64,000 bases of DNA, taken from the sequence record OR544955. One strand, 5' to 3'. Shown one piece after another: positions 6,395 through 63,800 of the stretch. Position 1 is the first letter of the stretch, and each line of letters starts with the position of its first letter. The notes under the pieces were generated by a model. The model was given only the letters and a program-made list of their open reading frames with translations, was not told the origin of the DNA and searched no databases. A program made the translations under genes and the position numbers. Source of the DNA: Escherichia phage vB_EcoP_EP32B.

Positions 6395-6556
6395 ATGGGT
6401 AAAACGTATCGTCGTAAAGATTTGAAAGTTCGCGATTATGACTATTTTGGTAAACGTAAAGCTCCTGACGGTGTTAGCCACAAAGACATGGTTGAAAACA
6501 TATTCCGCTCTGATAAATGGAAGCGTATGAAAGGCGTTGATTCTGAAGTCAAATGA
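6395..6556 (+). CDS. hypothetical protein
   Basis: ATG preceded by GAGGTACTT. Confidence 0.4.
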   Translation: MGKTYRRKDLKVRDYDYFGKRKAPDGVSHKDMVENIFRSDKWKRMKGVDSEVK

Positions 6557-6693
6557 AATGAATCGACAACTCCGCAAAGAAGTTCGTAAGTTGAAAAAAG
6601 ATGTTTACAGTAAAGAAGAGTATGATTATAATACTTCTCATACTGAAGCCAAACGTAAAGCTAACGAATGTTATCGTTACAGTTGAGGAAATT

Positions 6694-6828
6694 ATGAATA
6701 TCAAACGAATGCTTTTTAAGCAGGGATTATATACTTTAAATGTTAATCCAAAGGGTGATACAACTAAATGGTCTGTAAATGACTGGATTAAGTTCATCGA
6801 TGAAAATGGGGCGTGGAACACAAAATGA
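6694..6828 (+). CDS. hypothetical protein
   Basis: ATG preceded by GAGGAAATT. Confidence 0.35.
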   Translation: MNIKRMLFKQGLYTLNVNPKGDTTKWSVNDWIKFIDENGAWNTK

Positions 6829-7025
6829 ATCCTGAAAATATTGTGTCATGGCAACTTCGTGAAGAACGTGCCGAATTCTTTGCCAATATGAAACTCAACG
6901 GTGTTGAGGATGAAGACTTTTTACGTTGGTTCTGGATTTACAAATACAAAGAATGCCAACATGCTGTGCTATTGACTTGCGCAGTTATGTACGAAGGCTG
7001 GAAAGGCGCTAAAAAGTTCGGTTAA
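6825..7025 (+). CDS. hypothetical protein
   Basis: ATGA overlap coupling. Confidence 0.4.
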   Translation: MNPENIVSWQLREERAEFFANMKLNGVEDEDFLRWFWIYKYKECQHAVLLTCAVMYEGWKGAKKFG

Positions 7026-7088
7026 TAATATACAACGATAGGAAGATAATAACATGACTTCCTATCGTCTTAAAATGAGGAAAATATC

Positions 7089-7328
7089 ATGGCCCAAGAA
7101 TTAGATTTTATCAAATTCAAAAAACACCTCGACGTTAAAATTGGGGATTCAATTGTTAGGATTGAGTATGACATTTTAACAGATGCTATTACTGTTAGTT
7201 GTGATGGAAATAGTTTCAGCTTCGATACAACCGAAAACAAATACCCAATATATAAAGGTATCTTTGATATGGGTGTCGATATCAGCCCACGCGATACAAA
7301 TTACTTGCTTTTCATGCTTAAAAAATAG
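7089..7328 (+). CDS. hypothetical protein
   Basis: 79-aa ORF with RBS. Confidence 0.45.
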   Translation: MAQELDFIKFKKHLDVKIGDSIVRIEYDILTDAITVSCDGNSFSFDTTENKYPIYKGIFDMGVDISPRDTNYLLFMLKK

Positions 7329-7358
7329 TGTACAGACTCTTGAGAGCAGAGTATAATG
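7328..7358 (+). promoter_or_regulatory. early promoter
   Basis: -35 TGTACA, 17-nt spacer, -10 TATAAT; duplicate of 51186-51216. Confidence 0.6.
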
Positions 7359-7394
7359 CCCTCGTTGGATAATAAAATAACCGAGGAAAATAAT

Positions 7395-7727
7395 ATGTCT
7401 ACTAAAATCAAAAACGTAGTTAATTCTTTCGCTTTCGATAAAGTTGTTGCTCTTCTGGAATCCGGCAATATTGTTACTCCTCAAGTTCTTGACGCGTGGG
7501 AATTCCGTCTTTATGAAATCATGCAAAAACACGACCAGAAAATTGGACGTAATTCTATTCGTGAAATTCTAGTACAATATATTCTTTCTGAATTTGACGT
7601 TGCTGCATTTGGTGTTGAATCTAAAGCTTATCAGAAACATGAAATCTCTGAAAAGACTATCCGTCGTATGAAAAATCAACGTAAGAAAAAATTCGCTGAC
7701 TTGAAAATTGTTAAGGCGGTAAAATGA
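7395..7727 (+). CDS. hypothetical protein
   Basis: RBS GAGGAAAATAAT, downstream of early promoter 7328-7358. Confidence 0.5.
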   Translation: MSTKIKNVVNSFAFDKVVALLESGNIVTPQVLDAWEFRLYEIMQKHDQKIGRNSIREILVQYILSEFDVAAFGVESKAYQKHEISEKTIRRMKNQRKKKFADLKIVKAVK

Positions 7728-7951
7728 GCGTATTAACAGAAACTTTGATTAATGACCTGCGTCTAGCTGGTTACGAAGTTGGTACAAATAGCCTAGGTCT
7801 TCCTCAGATTGAAGGTCCTGGATTTATTTTGGAATATGAATTCAAACAATGGTGGTTATATGCTACGGTTGACGATGCGTTGAATATTGATTTCGTTGAC
7901 CAATTTGATTCGCTGGATGCTGCTCTTGAAGCAGCAAAGGAACTAGAATGA
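7724..7951 (+). CDS. hypothetical protein
   Basis: ATGA-coupled ORF. Confidence 0.5.
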   Translation: MSVLTETLINDLRLAGYEVGTNSLGLPQIEGPGFILEYEFKQWWLYATVDDALNIDFVDQFDSLDAALEAAKELE

Positions 7952-8217
7952 AATTAACTCGAATCAGTATAACTGAAGAAAAGCTGGGCGAATTTTATGT
8001 TGACGAATACATGAAAGTTACGTATTTTCCATTCGTTAAAGGTGTTGGTTTTTGGGAAACTCATGTATCTCAATTAAACGAAGGCGACTATAACGAAACA
8101 CATGAGAACTTTTTAGATTTTCTTTATAATGCCGGTCTTACTGAGCTTTATATCGATATCCATGAGTTCAAACGTTTAATGGAAAAAGTGTTTCAGGCTT
8201 ATTGTTTGCTCCGATAG
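7948..8217 (+). CDS. hypothetical protein
   Basis: ATGA-coupled ORF. Confidence 0.5.
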   Translation: MKLTRISITEEKLGEFYVDEYMKVTYFPFVKGVGFWETHVSQLNEGDYNETHENFLDFLYNAGLTELYIDIHEFKRLMEKVFQAYCLLR

Positions 8218-8224
8218 TATCTCG

Positions 8225-8268
8225 TGCTTTAAGATAGGTCTCTAAATATTATGATATAATAGACCTAT
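8225..8268 (+). promoter_or_regulatory. gene 55 promoter region: MotA box plus -10, with 8-bp inverted repeat around a second TATAAT
   Basis: TGCTTTA 8225-31; TAAATAT 8243-49; IR ATAGGTCT 8234-41 / AGACCTAT 8261-68. Confidence 0.5.
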
Positions 8269-8289
8269 GAATTGAGCCAAGAGGTACTT

Positions 8290-8847
8290 ATGACTGAACA
8301 AAAACCTAAAAATAACTATGTGAATAATAAAGAGCTTCTCGCCGCTATAATCGAGTGGAAAAAGGAGCTCTTAAATAATAAAGACCCAAACAAAATTATT
8401 CGTCAGAATGATACCATCGGTTTAGCAATTATGCTTATCGCCGAAGGCCTGTCCAAACGTTTCAACTTTTCAGGATATACCCAGTCTTGGAAGCAGGAGA
8501 TGATTGCAGATGGGATTGAAGCCTCTATTAAGGGACTTCATAATTTCGACGAAACTAAGTACAATAACCCACATGCATACATAACTCGAGCTTGTTTTAA
8601 TGCTTTTGTCCAACGTATCAAAAAAGAACGTAAGGAAGTTGCAAAGAAATATAGTTACTTCGTTCATAATGTCTACGACAGTCATGACGATGATATGGTA
8701 GCGTTGGTAGATGAAACGTTTATTCAAGACATCTACGATAAAATGACGCATTATGAAGAATCCGCTTATAAAGCTCCTGGGGCTGAAAAGAAGGAAGTTG
8801 TTAGCGATTCGCCTAGTTTGGATTTTTTATATGAGGATGACAATTGA
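8290..8847 (+). CDS. 55: late-transcription sigma factor gp55
   Basis: 185 aa, [61 protein letters not shown], recalled T4 gp55 match. Confidence 0.93.
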
Positions 8848-9046
8848 CATCTCTAACTACTTAGAAGAACCTTTTGACGAAGCAATCCCTTATTTGGTAA
8901 AACTGTTGGGTCGTGAATTTAAAATTAATTTTGACATCGACCCTTTGAACCCACACGACGTGTCATTTTCGATAAATGGGACTCCAGTTGAGTACGAGTT
9001 CTGTATTGAAGAGGATGGACGTTTTTATTTTAATTTAATGAGATAA
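8831..9046 (+). CDS. hypothetical protein
   Basis: overlaps gene 55 end; start uncertain (8831 or 8837). Confidence 0.35.
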
Positions 9047-9047
9047 T

Positions 9048-9371
9048 ATGACTACCGAGATTATTGAAAATAAAGAAGCAGAAGATGCAGTAGCTAAAAT
9101 GCTACAAGAAATCCAAAAGAAAAATGAAGCTGAAGCACGTAAAAAATCCGAAAAGATTCTTAAAAAGAATCGTTTTGAACTAAACCGTCTTTATGCTCAC
9201 GCTCAAGAAGCAGCAATTCAAAACAACTTCGAAGCTTACGAATATGCTATTAAGAAATCTCGGGATATTCTACGACAACCATATAATGACAAGTTAATTA
9301 AAATCCAGTGGGTTACTACTCGTCAGGCTATTGAGGACATTATTAATGGCGCTAGTTCAAACAAAGTTTAA
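9048..9371 (+). CDS. hypothetical basic coiled-coil protein
   Basis: 107-aa ORF. Confidence 0.5.
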   Translation: MTTEIIENKEAEDAVAKMLQEIQKKNEAEARKKSEKILKKNRFELNRLYAHAQEAAIQNNFEAYEYAIKKSRDILRQPYNDKLIKIQWVTTRQAIEDIINGASSNKV

Positions 9372-9552
9372 ACGTCTGAAACTGAACGCAGGGTTCACCC
9401 TTAAATTGGGAGGTCCTCTTTGTGTTAAAATTTCTGAAAAGGAATATCACGACGGTTCTATTACAGAAATTTGTCCGCCTATTGTAAAGGCAGACCCAAA
9501 ACAACTCGTATGGGTCGATTCATTTCAAGTTAAGAAATGGTGGAAACGATGA
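9346..9552 (+). CDS. hypothetical protein
   Basis: ATG after GAGGA. Confidence 0.4.
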   Translation: MALVQTKFKRLKLNAGFTLKLGGPLCVKISEKEYHDGSITEICPPIVKADPKQLVWVDSFQVKKWWKR

Positions 9553-11317: not shown

Positions 11318-12880
11318 ATGAAATCATTTAAATTAAATCGTGTTCGTTATCAAAACATCATGTCAGTAGGTGGGAATCCTATTGATATCCAATTAGATAA
11401 AGTCCAAAAGACATTAATCACTGGTAAAAATGGCGGTGGTAAATCTACGATGTTAGAAGCCATTACTTTCGGACTTTTCGGTAAACCATTTCGTGATGTT
11501 AAGAAAGGACAAATCATTAATAGCATGAACAAGAAAGAGCTCTTAGTTGAGCTTTGGATGGAATTCGATGATAAAAAATACTTCATTAAACGTGGCCAAA
11601 AGCCCAATATTTTCGAAATCTCCGTTGACGGTGTTCGTCTCGATGAATCTGCCAGCAGTCGTGACTTCCAAGAAGAATTTGAACGTAGCATCGGAATGTC
11701 ATACGCGTCTTTTAAACAAATCGTTGTGCTTGGGACGGCAGGGTATACCCCTTTCATGGCTCTTAGCACCCCTGCTCGTAGAAAGCTTGTTGAAGACTTA
11801 TTAGAAGTTGGCACACTCGCTGAAATGGATAAAATCAATAAGTCTCAAGTTCGCGAACTTAATTCTCAGGGACAAGTTCTTGATGCCAAGAAAGATGGTA
11901 TTATCCAACAAATTAAGATTTATAACGAGAATATCGAACGTCAAAAGAAATTATCTGGTGATAATGTAGCGCGTCTACAGAATATGTATGACGACCTAGC
12001 CAAAGAAGCTCGGTCATTAAAAGCAGAAATCGAAGAAGCTAATGAGCGACTACTTAATATCGTTCTTGATGAAGACCCTACTGAGGCATTCAACAAGATA
12101 GGACAAGAAGCATTCTTGATTAAATCTAAAATTGACTCATATAACAAAGTTATTAAGATGTATCATGATGGCGGTACATGTCCTACTTGTGCATCACAGT
12201 TGCACCAGGGTGACCCTATTGTCTCTAAGATTACCGATAAGCTTCATGAATGTAATCACTCATTCGAGCAACTTACATGTCACAGAGATAATCTGAGTGT
12301 CCTAGTGGACGAATATAGAGCTAATGTCAAGACTAAACAGGACCTTGCATCTGATATTCGTACCAAGAAACAAGCAATGATTGCCACTATTGATAAAGCT
12401 AAGAAAGTTAAAGCTGCAATAGAACAAGCCTCAGCAGAATTTATCGACCATGCCGATGAGATAGCTTTGCTTCAAAAAGAACTTGATAAAATCATTAAAA
12501 CAAAATCGGATATCGTTCTTGAAAAATACCATCGTGGTATTATCACAGATATGTTAAAAGATTCTGGTATTAAAGGTGCTATCATTAAAAAATATGTGCC
12601 TCTGTTCAACAAGCAGATTAACCATTATCTTAAAATCATGGAAGCTGATTACGTGTTTTCTATTGACGAAGAATTCAATGAATCTATAAAATCACGTGGC
12701 CGTGAAGAGTTCAGTTATGCTTCATTTAGTCAAGGCGAAAAAGCGCGTATCGATATCGCATTGTTGTTTACATGGCGAGATATTGCTGAAAAGGTCTCTG
12801 GTGTTAAAATCAACACAACGTGTTCATTATTTCTCACAGAGACCATGACCCACAAGCTTATGGACAACATCTTCAAATGA
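11318..12880 (+). CDS. 46: recombination ATPase gp46 (Rad50/SbcC-like); C-terminus disrupted, H-loop segment continues in another frame to 12918
   Basis: Walker A GKNGGGKST, zinc hook CPTC, signature SQGEKARIDIAL; no Walker B in frame; VFIISHRDHDPQ in other frame. Confidence 0.85.
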   Translation: MKSFKLNRVRYQNIMSVGGNPIDIQLDKVQKTLITGKNGGGKSTMLEAITFGLFGKPFRDVKKGQIINSMNKKELLVELWMEFDDKKYFIKRGQKPNIFEISVDGVRLDESASSRDFQEEFERSIGMSYASFKQIVVLGTAGYTPFMALSTPARRKLVEDLLEVGTLAEMDKINKSQVRELNSQGQVLDAKKDGIIQQIKIYNENIERQKKLSGDNVARLQNMYDDLAKEARSLKAEIEEANERLLNIVLDEDPTEAFNKIGQEAFLIKSKIDSYNKVIKMYHDGGTCPTCASQLHQGDPIVSKITDKLHECNHSFEQLTCHRDNLSVLVDEYRANVKTKQDLASDIRTKKQAMIATIDKAKKVKAAIEQASAEFIDHADEIALLQKELDKIIKTKSDIVLEKYHRGIITDMLKDSGIKGAIIKKYVPLFNKQINHYLKIMEADYVFSIDEEFNESIKSRGREEFSYASFSQGEKARIDIALLFTWRDIAEKVSGVKINTTCSLFLTETMTHKLMDNIFK

Positions 12881-28550: not shown

Positions 28551-28570
28551 AAGGAGACTTCGGTCTCCTT
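28551..28570 (+). other. UUCG-tetraloop hairpin after gene 41
   Basis: AAGGAGAC TTCG GTCTCCTT; weak U tract. Confidence 0.5.
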
Positions 28571-28634
28571 TCGGGGTTTACATCTTCCTCTAGGCATGAT
28601 ATGATGTACTTACACAAACCAAGAGGAAAACATT

Positions 28635-29009: not shown

Positions 29010-29060
29010 GTTTACTTCTCCAGTAGTTGTGTTATTATAGACCTATCAACTACTGGAGAA
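29010..29060 (+). promoter_or_regulatory. early promoter with 14-bp inverted repeat flanking the -10; distal arm contains the SD of the next gene
   Basis: -35 GTTTAC 29010-15, -10 TATTAT 29033-38, IR 29016-29029 / 29047-29060. Confidence 0.6.
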
Positions 29061-29064
29061 CAAA

Positions 29065-30317: not shown

Positions 30318-30353
30318 GTTTACATTATAGATGGACTATAGTATAGTAGTCCT
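30318..30353 (+). promoter_or_regulatory. early promoter with GGACTA/TAGTCC inverted repeat around -10
   Basis: -35 GTTTACA 30318-24, -10 TATAGT 30342-47. Confidence 0.5.
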
Positions 30354-30376
30354 ATCAAATCAACTAAGGAGTTAAA

Positions 30377-33782: not shown

Positions 33783-33808
33783 AGGAATCCTTCGGGATTC
33801 CTTTTTTT
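33783..33808 (+). terminator. UUCG-tetraloop hairpin plus T7 run
   Basis: AGGAATCC TTCG GGATTCC TTTTTTT. Confidence 0.75.
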
Positions 33809-33817
33809 GTTTCTACA

Positions 33818-33848
33818 GTTTACAACCACTAAAAACTGTGTTAAGATA
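33818..33848 (+). promoter_or_regulatory. early promoter
   Basis: -35 GTTTACA, 17-nt spacer, -10 TAAGAT. Confidence 0.55.
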
Positions 33849-39722: not shown

Positions 39723-39753
39723 TTTACAACCAAGGATGGTTGGAGTATAATGA
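39723..39753 (+). promoter_or_regulatory. early promoter
   Basis: -35 GTTTACA, 17-nt spacer, -10 TATAAT; shares CCAAGGATGG box with 40280 promoter. Confidence 0.6.
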
Positions 39754-40279: not shown

Positions 40280-40310
40280 TGTACATCCAAGGATGGATGG
40301 AGTATAGTGA
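40280..40310 (+). promoter_or_regulatory. early promoter
   Basis: -35 TTGTACA, -10 TATAGT. Confidence 0.55.
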
Positions 40311-41225: not shown

Positions 41226-41275
41226 GTTTACTTCTCCTCTGGTTTTGATATTATATCCATATCAACCAGAGGAGA
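41226..41275 (+). promoter_or_regulatory. early promoter with 12-bp inverted repeat flanking -10; distal arm includes SD
   Basis: -35 GTTTAC 41226-31; IR 41233-41244 / 41264-41275. Confidence 0.6.
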
Positions 41276-41280
41276 ATAGT

Positions 41281-41805: not shown

Positions 41806-41862
41806 TGTACAACAACTATGGTCTATGATACTATAGACCTATCAAAACAAGAGGAGAATATT

Positions 41863-49935: not shown

Positions 49936-50399
49936 AATGAAGGTTAAGATCGCTGATACTGCTCGGTACTCGTTGACAAATAAAAGAAGACGTTGTTCGA
50001 CGTTGTAAGGTTGCAATCTTTGCAGAGTATGTAGTAGCAAATTGGCTAGATGGATATGTTAATAAAGGTAATGAAGACGTAGAAGACCCGTACACGTATG
50101 CATGGGACGTTTTAGCTCATCCTAAGTACTGTGGTCTACGCGTAGAAGTAAAGACCCATCAGATGGATTCGAAATGGATTTCGGTTACCACAGGATACAG
50201 TGGTGATTATCCGGGTGGTAATGGAATCAATATAGGGCCCTTCTTGAACCATCGAGTCGCAGATTGCATTATTATATTAGATGTCAAAGAAACCTCACCT
50301 GACGTCTTCTCTTATTCTATAAAGTTCGTGGGAGACCATGAAGACCTAAAGAAAATCGTCCGTAAGAGCAACTACAACGGGTGGTATCTTCATCTTTAA
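49936..50399 (+). pseudogene. interrupted ORF: 23-codon start segment (49936-50007) plus start-less open frame 49977-50399 (possible DenB-position nuclease)
   Basis: 62 codons of open frame with no ATG/GTG/TTG before M at 50163. Confidence 0.4.
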
Positions 50400-50411
50400 T
50401 TTCATAAAGGT

Positions 50412-50447
50412 GTTTACAACTAAGTAGGACTATGATATAGTAGTCCT
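50412..50447 (+). promoter_or_regulatory. early promoter with AGGACTA/TAGTCCT inverted repeat
   Basis: -35 GTTTACA, -10 TATGAT. Confidence 0.5.
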
Positions 50448-50467
50448 ATCTAAAAGAGGATAACATC

Positions 50468-50731
50468 ATGAAATTTAAATTTTTCTACGCAAAACATAAA
50501 GTAACAGGTGAGTTTGTTTCAATGTACAACACCGCAGATGACGAAGGGATGATTTATACCCATTTAGGTCTATCTCACTGGGACTCGGACGTGCCTTATA
50601 TGTCATCTGAAGCCGAAATAACTCGTTTAGTTAACGGACATATGAACGACCATTTTGGTGTTATTCTTTCTAAAGACCTTAAAGAGGTTATCAACAAAGG
50701 ATATATGGAACTCGCGGAAGTTGAGATATGA
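50468..50731 (+). CDS. hypothetical protein
   Basis: 87-aa ORF, RBS AAGAGGA. Confidence 0.5.
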   Translation: MKFKFFYAKHKVTGEFVSMYNTADDEGMIYTHLGLSHWDSDVPYMSSEAEITRLVNGHMNDHFGVILSKDLKEVINKGYMELAEVEI

Positions 50732-50981
50732 GCTCTAAAATGTGGATCGGAATATGGTTGCTTAGTATCCCAATGATTTGTATAATATTTTCAATTGTGT
50801 TGAGGTACTTATGAAAAATGCACTTCTTATTGTACTAAGAACAATTTGCGATACAGGTTTTTACATCGCATGTTCGTTCACTGGAACATGGTTGGCTTTA
50901 ACATATTTTAATGTAATTTAATTGTTTACATCAAGGTAGGATTATGGTATAGTAGTCCTATCGAAACACGAGGAATACAAA

Positions 50982-51182
50982 ATGGCTAAGCTTTTTAAAG
51001 ATGTTGAAATTGGTGAAAAATTTGTCCTGAATAATGGTCAGCAGCTTATTCGTGTAGCTTCTATCGCCGGACAAACTCATAACTGTATCGCCCCAACGTG
51101 TTGGACTCGATTTTTTATTGAAGATGACACTGAATGTTTAACTGTTGAAGAGCTTTTTGAACGTTCTGATATAGCCGAATAA
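50982..51182 (+). CDS. hypothetical protein
   Basis: 66 aa, RBS GAGGAATAC. Confidence 0.45.
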   Translation: MAKLFKDVEIGEKFVLNNGQQLIRVASIAGQTHNCIAPTCWTRFFIEDDTECLTVEELFERSDIAE

Positions 51183-51185
51183 AAT

Positions 51186-51216
51186 TGTACAAACTCTTGA
51201 GAGCAGAGTATAATGC
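51186..51216 (+). promoter_or_regulatory. early promoter, near-identical copy of 7328-7358
   Basis: TTGTACAAACTCTTGAGAGCAGAGTATAATGC. Confidence 0.6.
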
Positions 51217-51258
51217 TCTCATGGATTACAAAAACATTAATCAATTGAGGAAATTAGC

Positions 51259-51705
51259 ATGTCCAAATATTTAACTCGTAAAGACCTTCTGGCAGTTGGC
51301 GGTGAAGTTGTTGCAGTAGTTCGTAATGGCGAATATGGTTCTGAAGTTTCTAAAGAGTTTCGTTCTCGTGAAGGTTTTTACTTCTTTGTTAAAGGTTCAT
51401 CAGATTGGCGACAAGTAGCAGCACGGTTCTTTGTAGGACGTCAACGTTCTAAACAAGGGTTGGATGCAATTCTTTCTCACATTCGTCAAGGCCGTTCGCA
51501 ACTGGCTCGTACCATGGGCACTAACAATATTGAATATGATGTAATCTTTGTTGCAGCTAAGAACATGAAACCACTGACTACTGGTTACGGTAAAGGTCAA
51601 TTGGCTCTGGCATTCACTCGCAACCATACATCAGAATATCAAACACTCACTGAAATGAACCGTCTTCTGGCTGATAACTTCAAATTCATTCTGCAGAGTT
51701 ATTAA
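51259..51705 (+). CDS. ndd: nucleoid disruption protein Ndd
   Basis: 148 aa; ..[56 protein letters not shown] as recalled for T4 Ndd. Confidence 0.75.
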
Positions 51706-51758
51706 TTTATACGGGGCCTATTAAGTTGGGCCTTTAATTTATTTTTGAGGTAATTAAA

Positions 51759-51905
51759 ATGGTAGCATGGATTATTGCATTGCTGTGTTGGTCGTTTTTA
51801 TTCGTTAACACTTTAGTTACAGGCGAAACAACAGTATTTCAACAGGCCGTATCACAAGGTACCTTAGCGGTCTTAGCTCTTCTTAACGTGTTAAAAGGCG
51901 AGTAA
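51759..51905 (+). CDS. small membrane protein (48 aa)
   Basis: RBS GAGG; hydrophobic. Confidence 0.35.
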   Translation: MVAWIIALLCWSFLFVNTLVTGETTVFQQAVSQGTLAVLALLNVLKGE

Positions 51906-52045
51906 TGATTAAGAAAATCTTAGCAGGAGCCTTCGGGCTCTTGTTGCTGCTTACGGTTCTGTACTATGGTGTGATGTTTGGACTAATCCAAGTAGTGCTT
52001 TTCATTTCAGATGTTATAATGGTTATTCGTTCATTAATATGGTGA
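51905..52045 (+). CDS. small membrane protein (46 aa)
   Basis: TAATG coupling. Confidence 0.35.
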   Translation: MIKKILAGAFGLLLLLTVLYYGVMFGLIQVVLFISDVIMVIRSLIW

Positions 52046-52049
52046 AAAT

Positions 52050-53375
52050 ATGCAATTGAATTCTCGTAATCTAAAAAGTATTATTGATAACGAAGCCTTA
52101 GCATATGCGATGTACACCGTTGAAAACCGTGCAATCCCAAACATGATTGATGGATTTAAGCCGGTTCAACGTTTTGTGGTTCATCGTGCGTTAGATTTGG
52201 CTCGTGGTAATAAAGAAAAATTTCATAAACTTGCGTCAATTGCAGGAGGTGTTGCAGATTTAGGTTATCACCATGGTGAATCTTCTGCACAAGATGCAGG
52301 TGCATTGATGGCTAACACGTGGAACAACAACTATCCACTGTTAGATGGCCAAGGCAACTTTGGTTCTAGAACAGTCCAAAAAGCTGCAGCATCTCGTTAT
52401 ATTTTTGCTCGTGTAAGTAAAAATTTCTATAACGTATATAAAGATACTGAATATGCTCCAGCTCATGAAGATAAAGAACACATTCCACCAAAATTCTATC
52501 TTCCTATTATTCCGACAGTTCTTTTGAATGGTGTTTCTGGTATTGCAACCGGTTACGCAACAAATATTCTGCCTCATAGTTTTAAATCGGTAAAAAAGGC
52601 TGTATTACAAGCTCTTCAAGGTAAAAATGTCACTAAGCCAAAAGTTGAATTCCCGGAATTCCGTGGTGAAGTACATGAAGTTGATGGGCGTTATGAGATT
52701 CACGGAACATATAAGTTCACATCTCGTACTCAAATGCAGATAACTGAAATCCCATATAAATTCGACCGTGAAACGTATGTGAGTAAGGTTCTTGACCCGT
52801 TGGAAGACAAAGGTCTAATCTCATGGGAAGATGATTGCGGTGAACACGGCTTTGGGTTTAAGGTGAAGTTCCGTAAAGAGTACTCGCTTCCTGATGATGA
52901 AGAGCTACGTCATGAAAAAATCATGAAAGATTTTAGTCTCATCGAACGTCGTTCACAAAACATCACAGTGATTAATGAAAAGGGTAAATTAGCTGTCTAC
53001 GATAACGTAGTGGACTTAATCAAAGATTTTGTTGAAGTCCGTAAGACTTACGTTCAGAAACGTATTGACAACAAAATCCTTGAATCTGAAAAAGCATTTA
53101 AACTTGCTTTTGCTAAGGCACACTTCATCAAAAAAGTTATCAGTGGTGAAATTGTGATTCAGGGCAAGACTCGTAAAGCTTTGACTGAAGAGCTAGCACA
53201 AATCGAAATGTATAAAGAACATGTCGATAAACTGGTATGTCTTAACATCTTCCATATCACTTCCGACGAAGCACGTAAACTAGCAGAAGAAGCTAAAGCT
53301 AAGAAAGAAGAAAATGAGTATTGGAAGTCTACTGATGTTGTGACAGAGTACACTAAAGACTTGGAGGCACTTTGA
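52050..53375 (+). CDS. 52: DNA topoisomerase II medium subunit gp52 (GyrA-like)
   Basis: 441 aa; ..AIPNMIDGFKPVQRF.. and active-site Tyr region. Confidence 0.95.
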   Translation: MQLNSRNLKSIIDNEALAYAMYTVENRAIPNMIDGFKPVQRFVVHRALDLARGNKEKFHKLASIAGGVADLGYHHGESSAQDAGALMANTWNNNYPLLDGQGNFGSRTVQKAAASRYIFARVSKNFYNVYKDTEYAPAHEDKEHIPPKFYLPIIPTVLLNGVSGIATGYATNILPHSFKSVKKAVLQALQGKNVTKPKVEFPEFRGEVHEVDGRYEIHGTYKFTSRTQMQITEIPYKFDRETYVSKVLDPLEDKGLISWEDDCGEHGFGFKVKFRKEYSLPDDEELRHEKIMKDFSLIERRSQNITVINEKGKLAVYDNVVDLIKDFVEVRKTYVQKRIDNKILESEKAFKLAFAKAHFIKKVISGEIVIQGKTRKALTEELAQIEMYKEHVDKLVCLNIFHITSDEARKLAEEAKAKKEENEYWKSTDVVTEYTKDLEAL

Positions 53376-53474: not shown

Positions 53475-53494
53475 TGCATTTTTCTCACAAAACA

Positions 53495-53525
53495 GTTTAC
53501 ATGTGCTTCAAACATGATATTATAG
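53495..53525 (+). promoter_or_regulatory. early promoter upstream of motA
   Basis: -35 GTTTACA, -10 GATATT/TATTAT, then conserved ATAGACCTATCAA start region. Confidence 0.55.
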
Positions 53526-53562
53526 ACCTATCAAAACAAAACAACCAAATTGGAGAAATGAA

Positions 53563-54195
53563 ATGTCTAAAGTTACTTACATCATCAAAGCTTCTGAAAA
53601 CGCTCTGAATGAAAAAACTGCTGCAATAATGGTTTATATCATTAAGAACAACTTCACCACTGCTGCCAATGTCCGTGAAGCTCTGGAAGCAGAATACAGT
53701 GCATCAGTTGTTAACTCTAACATTGGTGTATTGATTAAGAAAGGTTTAGTCGAAAAATCCGGTGATGGACTTGTAGCAACAGGCGAAGCAATGGATATTA
53801 TCCAAAAAGCTGCAGACCTCTTTGCCCAAGAAAATGCTCCAGAACTTCTTCAGAAACGTAACACCAGAAAAGCACGTGGAGTTACTCCTGAAATGCATGA
53901 ACTAGCAAACTTTGTTTTTGAAAATATTAAAGATAAAGTTGAAGTTAAAGAAATTGGTGAAAACCGTAGTAACTTAGAAGTTCGATTTGCAAAACGAGTT
54001 CTAGGTATTCGTCAGATCGAAATTCGTCGAGATGGTTCTCTTAGAATCTTTGCATACAACATGTCAGAAACTGAATCAAAGCTGTTTACTTCTCTTGAAA
54101 ATGATGTTAAGATTAAGATCGGTGGTAAATATACTTACATTGACTTCCCTAATGTGTCCAAAGAAATCATTACCCTTGTAACTAACGTACTGTGA
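53563..54195 (+). CDS. motA: middle-transcription activator MotA
   Basis: 210 aa; MSKVTYIIKAS..NSNIGVLIKKGLVEKSGDGL as recalled for T4 MotA. Confidence 0.9.
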   Translation: MSKVTYIIKASENALNEKTAAIMVYIIKNNFTTAANVREALEAEYSASVVNSNIGVLIKKGLVEKSGDGLVATGEAMDIIQKAADLFAQENAPELLQKRNTRKARGVTPEMHELANFVFENIKDKVEVKEIGENRSNLEVRFAKRVLGIRQIEIRRDGSLRIFAYNMSETESKLFTSLENDVKIKIGGKYTYIDFPNVSKEIITLVTNVL

Positions 54196-60864: not shown

Positions 60865-63800
60865 TTATTCAATCCACTCGAATTTAACAGATTTATTCAC
60901 AGGGTCTGGAATAATGCGGACATTACCAATCCTTAAGAAATCCCTTATTGTCAAGTTTCCGATTGTTGCATTATCAGAAGGTAAAGCACCAATATCAGAA
61001 GGTTGAGGAGGGTTTCCACCATCAAATACCTGAACAAAACTTGACCAAGAATTTTTAGTTTTCTGCCATGTACGAGTCCAACGGGTTGTACGTGCTTCTG
61101 GAGTTGTTGGATAAGTAATCCAATCTTGGTAAAGTGAATCAAGTGTGTTACCAAACTGAGTCAAAGTACCAGGAGATTTAACTTCTTCACCACGTTCTAA
61201 GTATGGAAGTCCAGACACTTCATTAGTTTTTTCAACCATTTTAAAATAACCCGGGAATTGGTTATAAGTGGCTGAATCGTTAATATCAATTGACCAGAAT
61301 CCTACATTATCAGATGTTGGCGCACGGGTATATAAATCGGATGTTTTAGTACCCTGAGAACGAATTCTCGAGTTAACAGTCAAACCGCCAGAATTTATAG
61401 TAGCACCATTGGCAATGATTAAGCCTTCACCAATTGTAATCTGACCGGATTGGTTATTAATTGATAATGGACGTAATCCATTAAATCCGCCAGTCTGATC
61501 ACCGGATGCGGTGATCATAAAATATGTGCTGCCGCCATCATTGCGAATAAAGAATCCATAATCACCACTAATTGCTCTAAATGCATTTGCAGACTTGCTA
61601 ATGAATTCGCCATTGGCTGTAACTGAACGACCAAATGTTGCAACGCCATTCGCATTTAACGTGCCTGAAGCGTTAACATTTATTGGCATCACAGTACCAT
61701 TAATGCTAAACGTTATATTCCCAGCTTTATTACGTTGAGAATAAAAGTGATTAGATGTTTCATCGCCAACTTCAAATACAGTAGAACGTGTTGTATCTGA
61801 ACCACCACCAAATTCATTTCCCCAAACTCTGATAGTTATCGTTTGAGCAGGATTTGTTCCAGTTTGAGGTCCTTTTTCAAAAATCAGACGAGTTGCTGTT
61901 CCAGTATTAGAAATAGTTAATGTACTATTTGCCGAAACTGAACCACCAAACGTAGCAGTACTAGATGATACAAGAGGGGCACTCAGATTCGTTTGCTGGG
62001 TTAAGGTTAGTGAACCATTAACCGTCTGTGCAATGTCCCTACGAATGAACTGAGATGAATCTAGGCCATCTAATAAATTACTATCTATGGCTTTTGCTTT
62101 TAATGGTAAATAGTTAGCAAGTACACGGTTTAATTCATATGGTGATATAGCATAGCTATTTTTTTCATATGATTCTAAAGGTTGTGTTGAACCAACTGTA
62201 TCATTACCAACAAATGTAATAGAACCGGATGAAGTTTTAACGAATCCGCGAATTGCCGTAGTAGCAGCCCATGTTGGTTCGTTCTGGACAATCCATTTTA
62301 AATTCTTAGGCGATACAGCAGTATTAGCAGAAGTTCCTGTTACAGTTTCAGCCCGAGTAGCAACCTTAATTACACCTTCAGACGTTTCAGTGGACTTAGT
62401 CCCTAAAAGCTTTTTAGGAGTAATAAGAACATCATCTAAAGTTCCTGCATTAGATTCTGCCTGAGTCGCTACGCGAAGTGTACCACGTTGTGTTTCATTT
62501 GCTTTAGAAATATCAAGAGTATAATGGTTCCACAAGGTTCCTTCTTCAATAAGTCCGGAATCAGAATTAACACTGGTACGGTCAGAAGAATCAAAATGAG
62601 TTTTAATTTTCAGTGGAGTCGAGATACGAGTATCATCAGTTCCAGTATCAAATTCAACTTGCGTAGCAATTTCGGCTATGCCGGATAATCCTTCCGTAGC
62701 TTTCCTATCATTTAACGTCTTAGGCGTTACTGCACGTGTATAATCAGTCCCAGCATTAGTTTCTACTTGCGTAGCAATTTCAATTAAACCAATACGTCCA
62801 TCAGTAGAAGTTTTCTTATGTAGTGTTTCAGGAGTTACTACAGCGTGAGAATAACCTGCTTGAGATTGTCCAGCAATTACTTCACTATCAACAGCTAAAA
62901 TTACTGCACCTTGTTGAGCATAAGTTGCTTTATATTGGTCAAGGGCTTTAGGAGAAATAGTTAAATTATTTACGGTTTTATTATAAACGTTAGTGCCTGC
63001 GGCCCCACGAGTTTCAGCAGGAGTAGCAGAAGTAGTTGATACATATTTAACTATACCAGATAGTGTTTCAGAACCCTGACGTGCCTGCAATTTCTTAGGT
63101 GTAATAATCGTTGTGTCATCAAGACCAGCATCGGTTTCAGCCTGAGTAGCAATTTCAGCAAGACCACGACGAGTTTCAGTTGCTGTACGCTCATTTAGTT
63201 TTTTAGGCGTAACAATAGTATCGTCAACGAATGTTGCTGTGGAATTCTGATTAACTTGTGCTGTTGTAGCAATTTTAGCGATACCACGTCGAGCTTCGGT
63301 TGCTGTACGATTTGCCAACGTTTCAGGAGTAATAGCCACTTCTTTAGCTGGAGTATTCTCTAAATCAACATTTGCTTGCGCTTGAGTAGCAAGAGCAATA
63401 ACACCTAAACGAGCTCGTGTAGCATCAGTTCCAGCATCAACACGTTCTACCGTAGGGACATTCTGTTGCACAACCCAATAATGAGTGTCGGAATCGGTGT
63501 CTTCAATATATGCTAATTCTAATACAGGAACATATGAAGTAGTGCCATTGAATTCTAGTTCAGTAACAGAGACCCATTGAGCATCAGGTGGATATTCAGA
63601 ACGTTTAGGGAACTGAAGCAATGCAACAGAAGAAGCAATTGTATCACCTTCGGCAGCTTTAATTTTTACTGTTTGGCCTTTACGCATGTAGTTCATTGAA
63701 ATTTTAACAGTGTCACCACTCAAAATTCCTGTAGGCAGCGTAAGATTAATAGTTCCGGTTGTAGCGTTATTTGTGCCAAAAATAAGAACTTCTTCATTTG

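Follow-up and report, generated by a model that had tools for sequence, protein, structure and literature searches.

A repeated early promoter of Mosigvirus with a conserved stem around its -10 box: evidence for a promoter/stem-loop cassette

Why should two early promoters at distant loci of one phage genome carry almost the same sequence, inverted repeat included? The question is raised by a 64,000-nt stretch of DNA from Escherichia phage vB_EcoP_EP32B (sequence record OR544955), which was analysed at its full length and is referred to here as the window. The original prediction was that near-identical copies of an early promoter lie at 7328-7358 and 51186-51216, as a result of promoter duplication or at recombination hotspots. 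Alignment bears out the near-identity: far from being unlike at most positions, 7329-7359 and 51186-51216 differ at 1 of 31 bases, with a chance expectation of none. The second interval stood as predicted and the first had to be moved by one base, since the -35 hexamer TGTACA starts at 7329. The sequence AACTCTTGAGAGCAGAGTATAATGC occurs exactly at 51192-51216 and with a single mismatch (G7335 for A) at 7335-7359; it found no match in 100 dinucleotide shuffles. Similarity between the two sites, called P1 and P2 below, extends to 81% over 57 nt (7321-7377 versus 51178-51234; repeat family D4).

Both sites lie on the + strand, in the intergenic interval between an upstream stop codon and the Shine-Dalgarno (SD) sequence and ATG of the next gene. 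P1 (7320-7394) is the putative promoter of a homologue of T4 gene 55.2 (PhAPEC2 annotation; phrog_1475) whose ATG is at 7395. An A-tract (7320-7325) is followed by the upstream stop codon TAG (7326-7328), which directly precedes the -35 box TGTACA (7329-7334). Then come a spacer segment of the AACTCTT type, GACTCTT (7335-7341), the left arm of the repeat, GAGAGC (7342-7347), the tetranucleotide AGAG (7348-7351), the -10 box TATAAT (7352-7357), the right arm GCCCTC (7358-7363), the conserved sequence TGGATAATAAAAT (7366-7378) and the SD motif GAGG (7383-7386). P2 (51178-51258), the putative promoter of ndd (ATG at 51259), has its -35 box TGTACA at 51186-51191, the left arm GAGAGC at 51199-51204, the -10 box TATAAT at 51209-51214, the right arm GCTCTC at 51215-51220, TGGATTACAAAAA at 51222-51234 and GAGG at 51247-51250. 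The AT-rich tract before the -35 box reads aaaaaatag in P1 (7320-7328) and aataaaat in P2 (51178-51185). A GAGAGC/GCTCTC repeat around the -10 box had been predicted for both copies; it is perfect in P2, whereas the right arm of P1 contains one mismatch. P1 and P2 are the best local sigma-70-like sites (TGTACA-17-TATAAT, 10 of 12 hexamer matches, 17-nt spacer), and it is on consensus that their presumed promoter activity and start site rest. What would be the first transcribed bases (7366-7378 and 51222-51234) conform to TGGA(T/G)(T/A)A(T/C)AAA, which is conserved in all family members. GGAG or GGAU with an A-rich tract behind it is the type of sequence that the T4 nuclease RegB cleaves (PMC3014915).

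Segments 6500-9500 and 50200-52200 gave full-length matches to Mosigvirus genomes at 97-99.7% identity (megablast, GenBank phages); by these matches, the window is a segment of a Mosigvirus (RB69-like, T4-type) genome. In the annotated relative NBG1, a first block comprises endonuclease VII (49), nrdD, nrdG, 55.x ORFs, 55, 47, 46, 45, 44, 62, regA and 43; rIIB, denB, ndd, topoisomerase (52) and motA are found further on, and all of these genes correspond to the + strand of the window. The matches and the gene order thus mark the + strand as the one that bears the early genes of a T4-type phage. When T4-type early promoters were sought with looser settings, 35 candidates came out on this strand against 6 on the other, and about 20 of these candidates are located just 5' of an SD and ATG. 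The same two loci bear the cassette in about 150 database genomes, which rules out an assembly artefact or a recent local duplication as the origin of P1 and P2. Compared with OQ031495.1, a complete Mosigvirus genome, the window is missing clean blocks of 88-350 nt (at 1541, 5527, 12816, 19395, 29562, 33590, 33762, 36065, 57691 and 58800), several of which are intragenic and have lengths that are not multiples of three. The block at 12816 removes 88 nt of gene 46, coding for a segment ...LILDEVFDG...; the best 8 matches at this site each align in two pieces (518-519 nt for a 430-431-nt query), so the junction of the window is seen in none of these best 8 matches. The missing blocks look like an assembly or data artefact of the window and not like biology, and the promoters are untouched by them. 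A repeat of another sort lies at 62320-63462, where five diverged copies of a 48-nt unit, 63-83% identical to the reference copy, are spaced by 108-375 nt (D1); presumably, the unit reflects a recurrent protein motif encoded by a late - strand gene.

P1 and P2 conform to a layout made of AACTCTT, a 6-nt arm, AGAG-TATAAT, a second 6-nt arm and TGGA. Judged by this layout, they are two of the four copies of one promoter subfamily that a Mosigvirus genome contains. In OQ031495.1, the four copies precede ndd, the 55.2 homologue, a 99-aa ORF and a 197-aa ORF. Four copies are also found in Gaprivervirus TH44, before motB, ndd and two ORFs of unknown function, and one copy each in Tequatrovirus SH-1 and T4, before motB. 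Further copies were obtained from T4-like contigs of IMG/VR in a scan with the invariant parts. The genes downstream from subfamily copies belong to seven unrelated PHROG families, mostly of unknown function, and motB itself follows an AACTCTT/AGAG cassette in T4 and Gaprivervirus but a CCAAGGATGG cassette in the window. Thus, the cassette is not bound to a gene. Comparing the flanking gene content of related phages leads to the same result, as the same cassette precedes unrelated genes.

One could argue that such likeness implies neither common descent nor exchange. Strong T4-type early promoters would simply share one extended RNA polymerase consensus, in which the repeat is incidental. T4 early promoters do carry consensus information beyond the -35 and -10 boxes (PMC2988021), and many early promoters from several genera share the start-region motif (C)CTATCAA. 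However, spacers of a quite different sequence occur in other early promoters of the window, and AACTCTT...AGAG is therefore no general requirement. Moreover, convergence does not account for the location of the cassette at indel junctions, and polymerase contacts alone leave unexplained why six arm positions vary and yet stay complementary. Convergence is, in our view, very unlikely.

To describe the variation of the arms, 24 distinct copies of the subfamily were aligned without gaps. There is little or no variation in the flanks ACAAACTCTT and AGAGTATAAT, whereas the two 6-nt arms vary. Standard pairs make up 97.9% of the cells formed by columns 26-31 and 42-47, compared to 82% after column shuffling and 40-57% with the partner shifted by 1-3 columns; many rows of this alignment are orthologues, so that its cells do not represent independent events. 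Five of the six arm pairs show changes on both sides (G:C/A:U, A:U/G:C, G:C/C:G/U:A, C:G/A:U), and the covariation score, 0.533 against 0.223 in shuffles, was reached by 0 of 500 shuffles. At least five arm pairs are in use (GAGAGC/GCTCTC, GAGAGA/TCTCTC, GGGAGC/GCTCCC, GGGGTC/GACCCC and GGGACC/GGTCCC), several of them in one genome. As a negative control, unrelated contigs that match the flank pattern by chance in the IMG/VR scan were considered; arm pairing was found in none. Among the 13 non-Watson-Crick cells, ten read as G:U on the sense strand, while only one, in the window's own P1, would wobble on the opposite strand. Altogether, the pairing, the compensatory changes and the sense-strand G:U bias indicate that the inverted repeat is a selected hairpin, most likely in read-through RNA. 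The stem around the -10 box has thus most likely been selected as a single-strand structure in the sense orientation; the G:U bias fits RNA, where the hairpin would act, and speaks against a cruciform or a protein operator.

An operator would be a natural way to read a dyad centred on the -10 box, where a bound protein would block polymerase. A dimeric phage or host protein would bind there and shut off this subset of early promoters. Those downstream genes that are known, ndd, motB and 55.2, all serve very early functions, and how T4 shuts off its early promoters is described as incompletely understood (PMC3014915, PMC2988021). Against this, the arms differ within one genome, being GGGTCC, GGGAGC and GGGGTC in TH44 and GAGAGC, GAGAGA and GGGAGC in Mosigvirus, so that no single sequence-specific protein could read them all. 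In addition, the changes are compensatory and not conserved, and mismatches are G:T on the sense strand only. These features make an operator highly improbable.

The sites orthologous to P1 in other genera point to a transcript boundary. In Tequatrovirus, the site before 55.2 has no promoter; it carries a canonical terminator, GGGCTTCGGCCC followed by TTTTT (a UUCG-loop hairpin with a U-tract), and then the same TGGATAATAAAAT leader. The Gaprivervirus site reads GGGGTC-ATGGTATAAT-GACCCC. With a terminator or a hairpin at this place in relatives, the 55.2 site appears to be a conserved transcript-boundary hairpin, the loop of which includes a -10 box in some lineages. The ndd leader of Tequatrovirus SH-1 (L033-L036) has no -35 box and keeps a hairpin, GGCCG-TGTGTATTCATG-CGGCC, followed by TTGGAGTAGAAAAT; its layout is that of P2 with a degenerate -10 box in the loop.

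These observations also bear on the proposal that the repeat works at the level of DNA, as a hairpin or cruciform, as a GC-rich discriminator sensitive to supercoiling, or as a target of structure-specific nucleases or recombination proteins. In an AT-rich genome, the right arm is rich in GC, and it coincides with the discriminator (-6 to -1). Going by T4 annotation, the downstream genes ndd, motB and 55.2 are concerned with host DNA, which would suit such a role. The authors who described the promoter-early stem-loops (PeSLs) of RB49/phi1 speculated that a recombination protein might recognise the G...C stems, and they observed crossovers within the loop or close to it (Arbiol et al. 2010, PMC2839356). 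Yet each sense-strand G:T pair would turn into an A.C mismatch on the opposite strand, and the Tequatrovirus orthologue of the 55.2 site, with its UUCG loop and U-tract, is a typical RNA terminator. Furthermore, cruciform extrusion is energetically unfavourable with an arm of 6 bp and a loop of 10 nt. An action through DNA structure is, on balance, improbable.

Predicted RNA folds vary in stability among the copies. The P2 RNA (51186-51232) folds with -13.9 kcal/mol (z = -2.98), and that of P1 with -7.8 kcal/mol (z = -0.54), no better than shuffles, owing to the A.C mismatch in the P1 stem. The T4 motB RNA reaches -19.7 kcal/mol (z = -4.7). In this RNA, an outer helix is predicted between the spacer sequence ACUCU and GGAGU in the start region, where the alignment columns are invariant. 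No intrinsic terminator was called at 7342-7363 or 51199-51220, which lack a U-tract and have the tails GTTGGAT and ATGGATT; Rfam 15 gave 0 matches at gathering score in the whole window. Pairing between spacer and SD, compared with shuffles, is marginal in both promoters (p = 0.08 for P1 and p = 0.06 for P2), and SD sequestration is therefore not claimed for either.

Stems that span or adjoin the -10 box are present in other early promoters of the window, all on the + strand. A box expected to be shared by the promoters at 39723 and 40280 was recovered as CCAAGGATGG(T/A)TGGAGTATA at 39730-39749 and 40287-40306 (chance expectation 0). The first of these promoters (39723-39751; -35 TTTACA at 39723-39728, -10 TATAAT at 39746-39751) precedes a gene for a 164-aa motB paralogue and the second (40280-40308; -35 TGTACA at 40280-40285, -10 TATAGT at 40303-40308) precedes motB. 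Their spacers show exactly two differences, and these are compensatory (A:T to T:A) in a 5-bp hairpin formed by CAACC (39727-39731) with GGTTG (39738-39742) in the former and by CATCC (40284-40288) with GGATG (40295-40299) in the latter. A conserved start region, proposed to follow four early promoters, holds for three: ATAGACCTATCAA is exact at 29037, 41833 and 53522, and the site at 8259 has one mismatch (TATGAA). With up to two mismatches allowed, there are 6 matches versus 2.4 expected, and the signal therefore lies in the three exact copies; a related motif, GTAGTCCTATCAA, is found at 30346.

In the promoter region of gene 55 (8234-8271), ATAGGTCT (8234-8241) is complementary to AGACCTAT (8261-8268) around TATAAT (8255-8260), and the Tequatrovirus SH-1 orthologue, with ATAGATCT/AGATCTAT, shows a compensatory G:C to A:T change. 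Besides this 8-bp inverted repeat, the promoter of gene 55, which encodes the late sigma factor, has a MotA-box-like TGCTTTA just upstream (8226-8232). Hairpins of 12-14 bp characterize two early promoters of family D3. In the one at 29011-29064, whose stem measures 13-14 bp, the spacer contains the left arm TCTCCAGTAGTTG and the right arm CAACTACTGGAGA includes the SD, with the -10 box and the start region ATAGACCTAT in the loop between them (-21.1 kcal/mol, z = -5.6). The one at 41227-41280 has the same architecture (TCTCCTCTGGTT with AACCAGAGGAGA; -24.8 kcal/mol, z = -6.6); its arms differ in sequence from those at 29011, with complementarity kept. According to these folds, the ribosome-binding site of either promoter would be hidden in read-through RNA and accessible in RNA started locally. 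Arms GGTCTAT/ATAGACC surround the -10 box TACTAT of the early promoter at 41806-41862, which has the ATAGACCTATCAA start region. Three early promoters form a GGACTAT..TATAGTAGTCCTATC subfamily (family D2): 50413-50467, with a 10-bp stem around the -10 box; 50925-50981, with GGATTAT..TAGTCC and a sense-strand U:G pair; and 30319-30376, with GGACTAT/GTAGTCC around the -10 box. The longest stem spanning the -10 box averages 7.1 in real promoters versus 6.3 in left/right chimeras (permutation p = 0.007, n = 20), and stems of at least 10 bp occur in 4 of 20 promoters versus 1.8% of chimeras; these chimeras, built from the halves of two different promoters, are a weaker control than intended, as a pyrimidine-rich spacer can pair with any SD. 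Spacer-to-SD pairing is clearly above shuffles in 3 of the 20 (29011, 41227 and 28577).

If the cassette is not bound to a gene, do genes come and go at its borders? Several cases suggest so. The 79-aa ORF at 7089-7328 (phrog_11314) is flanked by P1 on one side and by another hairpin cassette on the other. This left cassette (7029-7088, + strand) consists of a -35-like TATACA (7029-7034), an 11-bp hairpin pairing ACGATAGGAAG (7035-7045) with CTTCCTATCGT (7058-7068) and having a -10-like GATAAT in its loop (-14.8 kcal/mol, z = -5.46), and then an SD and the ATG at 7089. PhAPEC2 has no 79-aa ORF, and just one cassette separates its 55.3 homologue from 55.2; in p000v, identity is as low as 74% for the ORF and 96% for 55.2. 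The motA promoter cassette (53494-53571, + strand), which has the ATAGACCTATCAA start region, is present in a single copy in the window. In OQ031495.1, an extra small ORF lies between two copies of this 78-nt cassette, and the alignment blocks of the two genomes overlap by exactly 53494-53571. One copy in Gaprivervirus contigs is followed by a gene whose N-terminal half comes in two unrelated versions, the divergence starting right after the cassette.

Sequence divergence can also be confined to the cassette itself. The core of P1 is 85% identical to that of NBG1, OQ031495.1 and L120, and the flanking genes are 96-99% identical. Since an IMG/VR scan for the P1 downstream context returned only two loci, the diversity of P1 alleles was drawn from GenBank phage matches. 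At least four alleles exist among Mosigviruses, some matching other paralogous copies, a pattern compatible with conversion between copies. Finally, the tandem genes behind the 39723 and 40280 promoters have a common MotB-like C-terminal segment (33% identity, E = 1e-9), which fits a tandem duplication of a promoter-gene unit. The unrelated downstream genes, the indels, the local divergence and the tandem pair thus lend support to both of the processes originally predicted, promoter duplication and recombination hotspots. In individual cases, the indels at cassettes constitute an association, from which we infer a recombination mechanism.

We propose that P1 and P2 are PeSL-type sigma-70 early promoter/hairpin cassettes, each acting as a terminator/promoter unit and as portable homology for recombination; we put the probability of this reading at roughly 75%. 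From its 5' side, such a cassette would comprise the upstream stop codon, an A-rich tract, the -35 box (T/G)T(T/G)TACA, AACTCTT, a 6-nt arm, AGAG-TATAAT, the complementary 6-nt arm, a TGGA(T/G)-A-rich start region, the SD and the ATG of the next gene. Host RNA polymerase would start just 3' of the right arm. As this arm occupies -6 to -1, mRNA from the cassette's own promoter would be devoid of the hairpin. Transcripts reading through from upstream, on the other hand, would contain both arms and fold into a hairpin with the -10 box as its loop, which most likely attenuates, terminates or 3'-stabilises the upstream transcript. For the hairpins of P1 and P2, which lack a U-tract, attenuation, pausing or 3'-end protection would be the probable modes. 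By acting on the upstream transcript, the hairpin would make each cassette a self-contained terminator/promoter unit. At the same time, a cassette of about 35-60 nt that is nearly identical across loci and genera would offer portable homology to the phage recombination system: genes could be gained, lost or exchanged at cassette boundaries, and copies could convert one another.

A further reading, which is unlikely, is that the hairpin exceeds a terminator remnant and is a general T-even early-cassette device that sorts local from read-through mRNA, or else that it makes the promoters of ndd, motB and 55.2, genes directed at the nucleoid, respond to DNA topology. In the first case, local mRNA could present no hairpin, a free 5' GGA(G/U)-A-rich leader and a free SD, while in read-through mRNA the hairpin could fold and, for some cassettes, block the SD. 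Each small early gene would in this manner have its translation, its cleavage by RegB or other RNases, and its decay tied to its own promoter.

How does the proposed terminator/promoter cassette compare with known systems? P1 and P2 resemble the early promoters described in T4 and RB69 in their GTTTAC-type -35 box, A-rich UP-like tract and TATAAT-type -10 box (PMC1524935, PMC2988021), as well as in the C-rich positions -3 to -1 and the location 5' of early genes and novel ORFs. In RB69, 57 early promoters, C-rich from -3 to -1, were predicted by Nolan et al. 2006 (PMC1524935). These studies, however, present one consensus, and subfamilies with distinct spacers and embedded hairpins are absent from them (PMC1524935, PMC2988021). 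Likeness to Rho-independent terminators consists in a GC-rich hairpin placed just after a stop codon, and the Tequatrovirus orthologue of the P1 site is canonical in this respect; the hairpins of P1 and P2 differ by their 10-nt loop and the lack of a U-tract. A third precedent is offered by T4 genes e, soc, 49 and I-TevI, where a hairpin hides the ribosome-binding site in read-through RNA and an internal promoter frees it (PMC3014915). The 29011 and 41227 promoters, with the start site in the loop and the SD in the right arm, are built alike; yet the T4 genes use late promoters and these two are early, and the stems of P1 and P2 do not include the SD.

The closest counterparts are the PeSLs. 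In RB49/phi1, their stem-loops lie most often in the stretch that separates the -35 box from the -10 box, or overlap the -10 box; they are concentrated before small ORFs and at indels, can form mini-circles, and in one case a stem-loop was as strong as rrnB T1 in lowering the expression of a reporter (PMC2839356). Later work added T4/PST and nt-1/KVP40 to the class (Comeau et al. 2014, PMC4122927); the T4/PST promoters read TTTACW-N17-TAYWAT, and the ndd region, rich in PeSLs in T4/PST, supplies an example. P1 and P2 share with PeSLs the AT-rich tract, the sigma-70-like -35 and -10 boxes with a 17-nt spacer, the G...C-rich stem-loop and the ensuing SD and ATG, as well as the repeated intergenic copies before small early ORFs, at sites of insertion, deletion or replacement between close relatives. 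Thus, every sequence-level feature of the class, from boxes and spacing, AT-rich tract, stem-loop and SD/ATG to copies and indel association, was found at P1 and P2; as to copy number, a Mosigvirus genome has 4 subfamily copies, and the window contains about 20 early promoter cassettes. These data support the assignment of P1 and P2 to PeSL-type early promoter/stem-loop cassettes, an already described class. The original prediction mentioned neither that the repeat is a selected hairpin nor the PeSL precedent (PMC2839356, PMC4122927). No new kind of element is revealed, and the finding is largely an ordinary one, though well supported.

The differences are of phage genus and of arrangement. 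The present cassettes are from Mosigvirus, and also from Gaprivervirus and, at motB, from T4, membership being judged from sequence features. In published T4/PST PeSLs, the stem-loop is drawn just upstream of the promoter; the arms described here surround the -10 box, as in RB49/phi1. The terminator-then-promoter order drawn for T4/PST does have equivalents in the window, where the CTTCGG-loop terminators GGAGACTTCGGTCTCC (28554-28583) and AGGAATCCTTCGGGATTCCTTTTTTT (33783-33825) lie directly before the -35 box of early promoters. Cross-genus covariation of the stem and a sense-strand G:U bias, as described here, were not found in the PeSL papers cited above. In conclusion, the PeSL idea is extended to the RB69 group and copies are linked in three T-even genera, the T4 motB promoter among them. 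What is added to the known systems is a subfamily that spans three genera, covariation evidence with sense-strand bias for a stem embracing the -10 box, and concrete indel cases, comparative evidence that makes a role of the cassette in insulating and shuffling small early genes directly testable.
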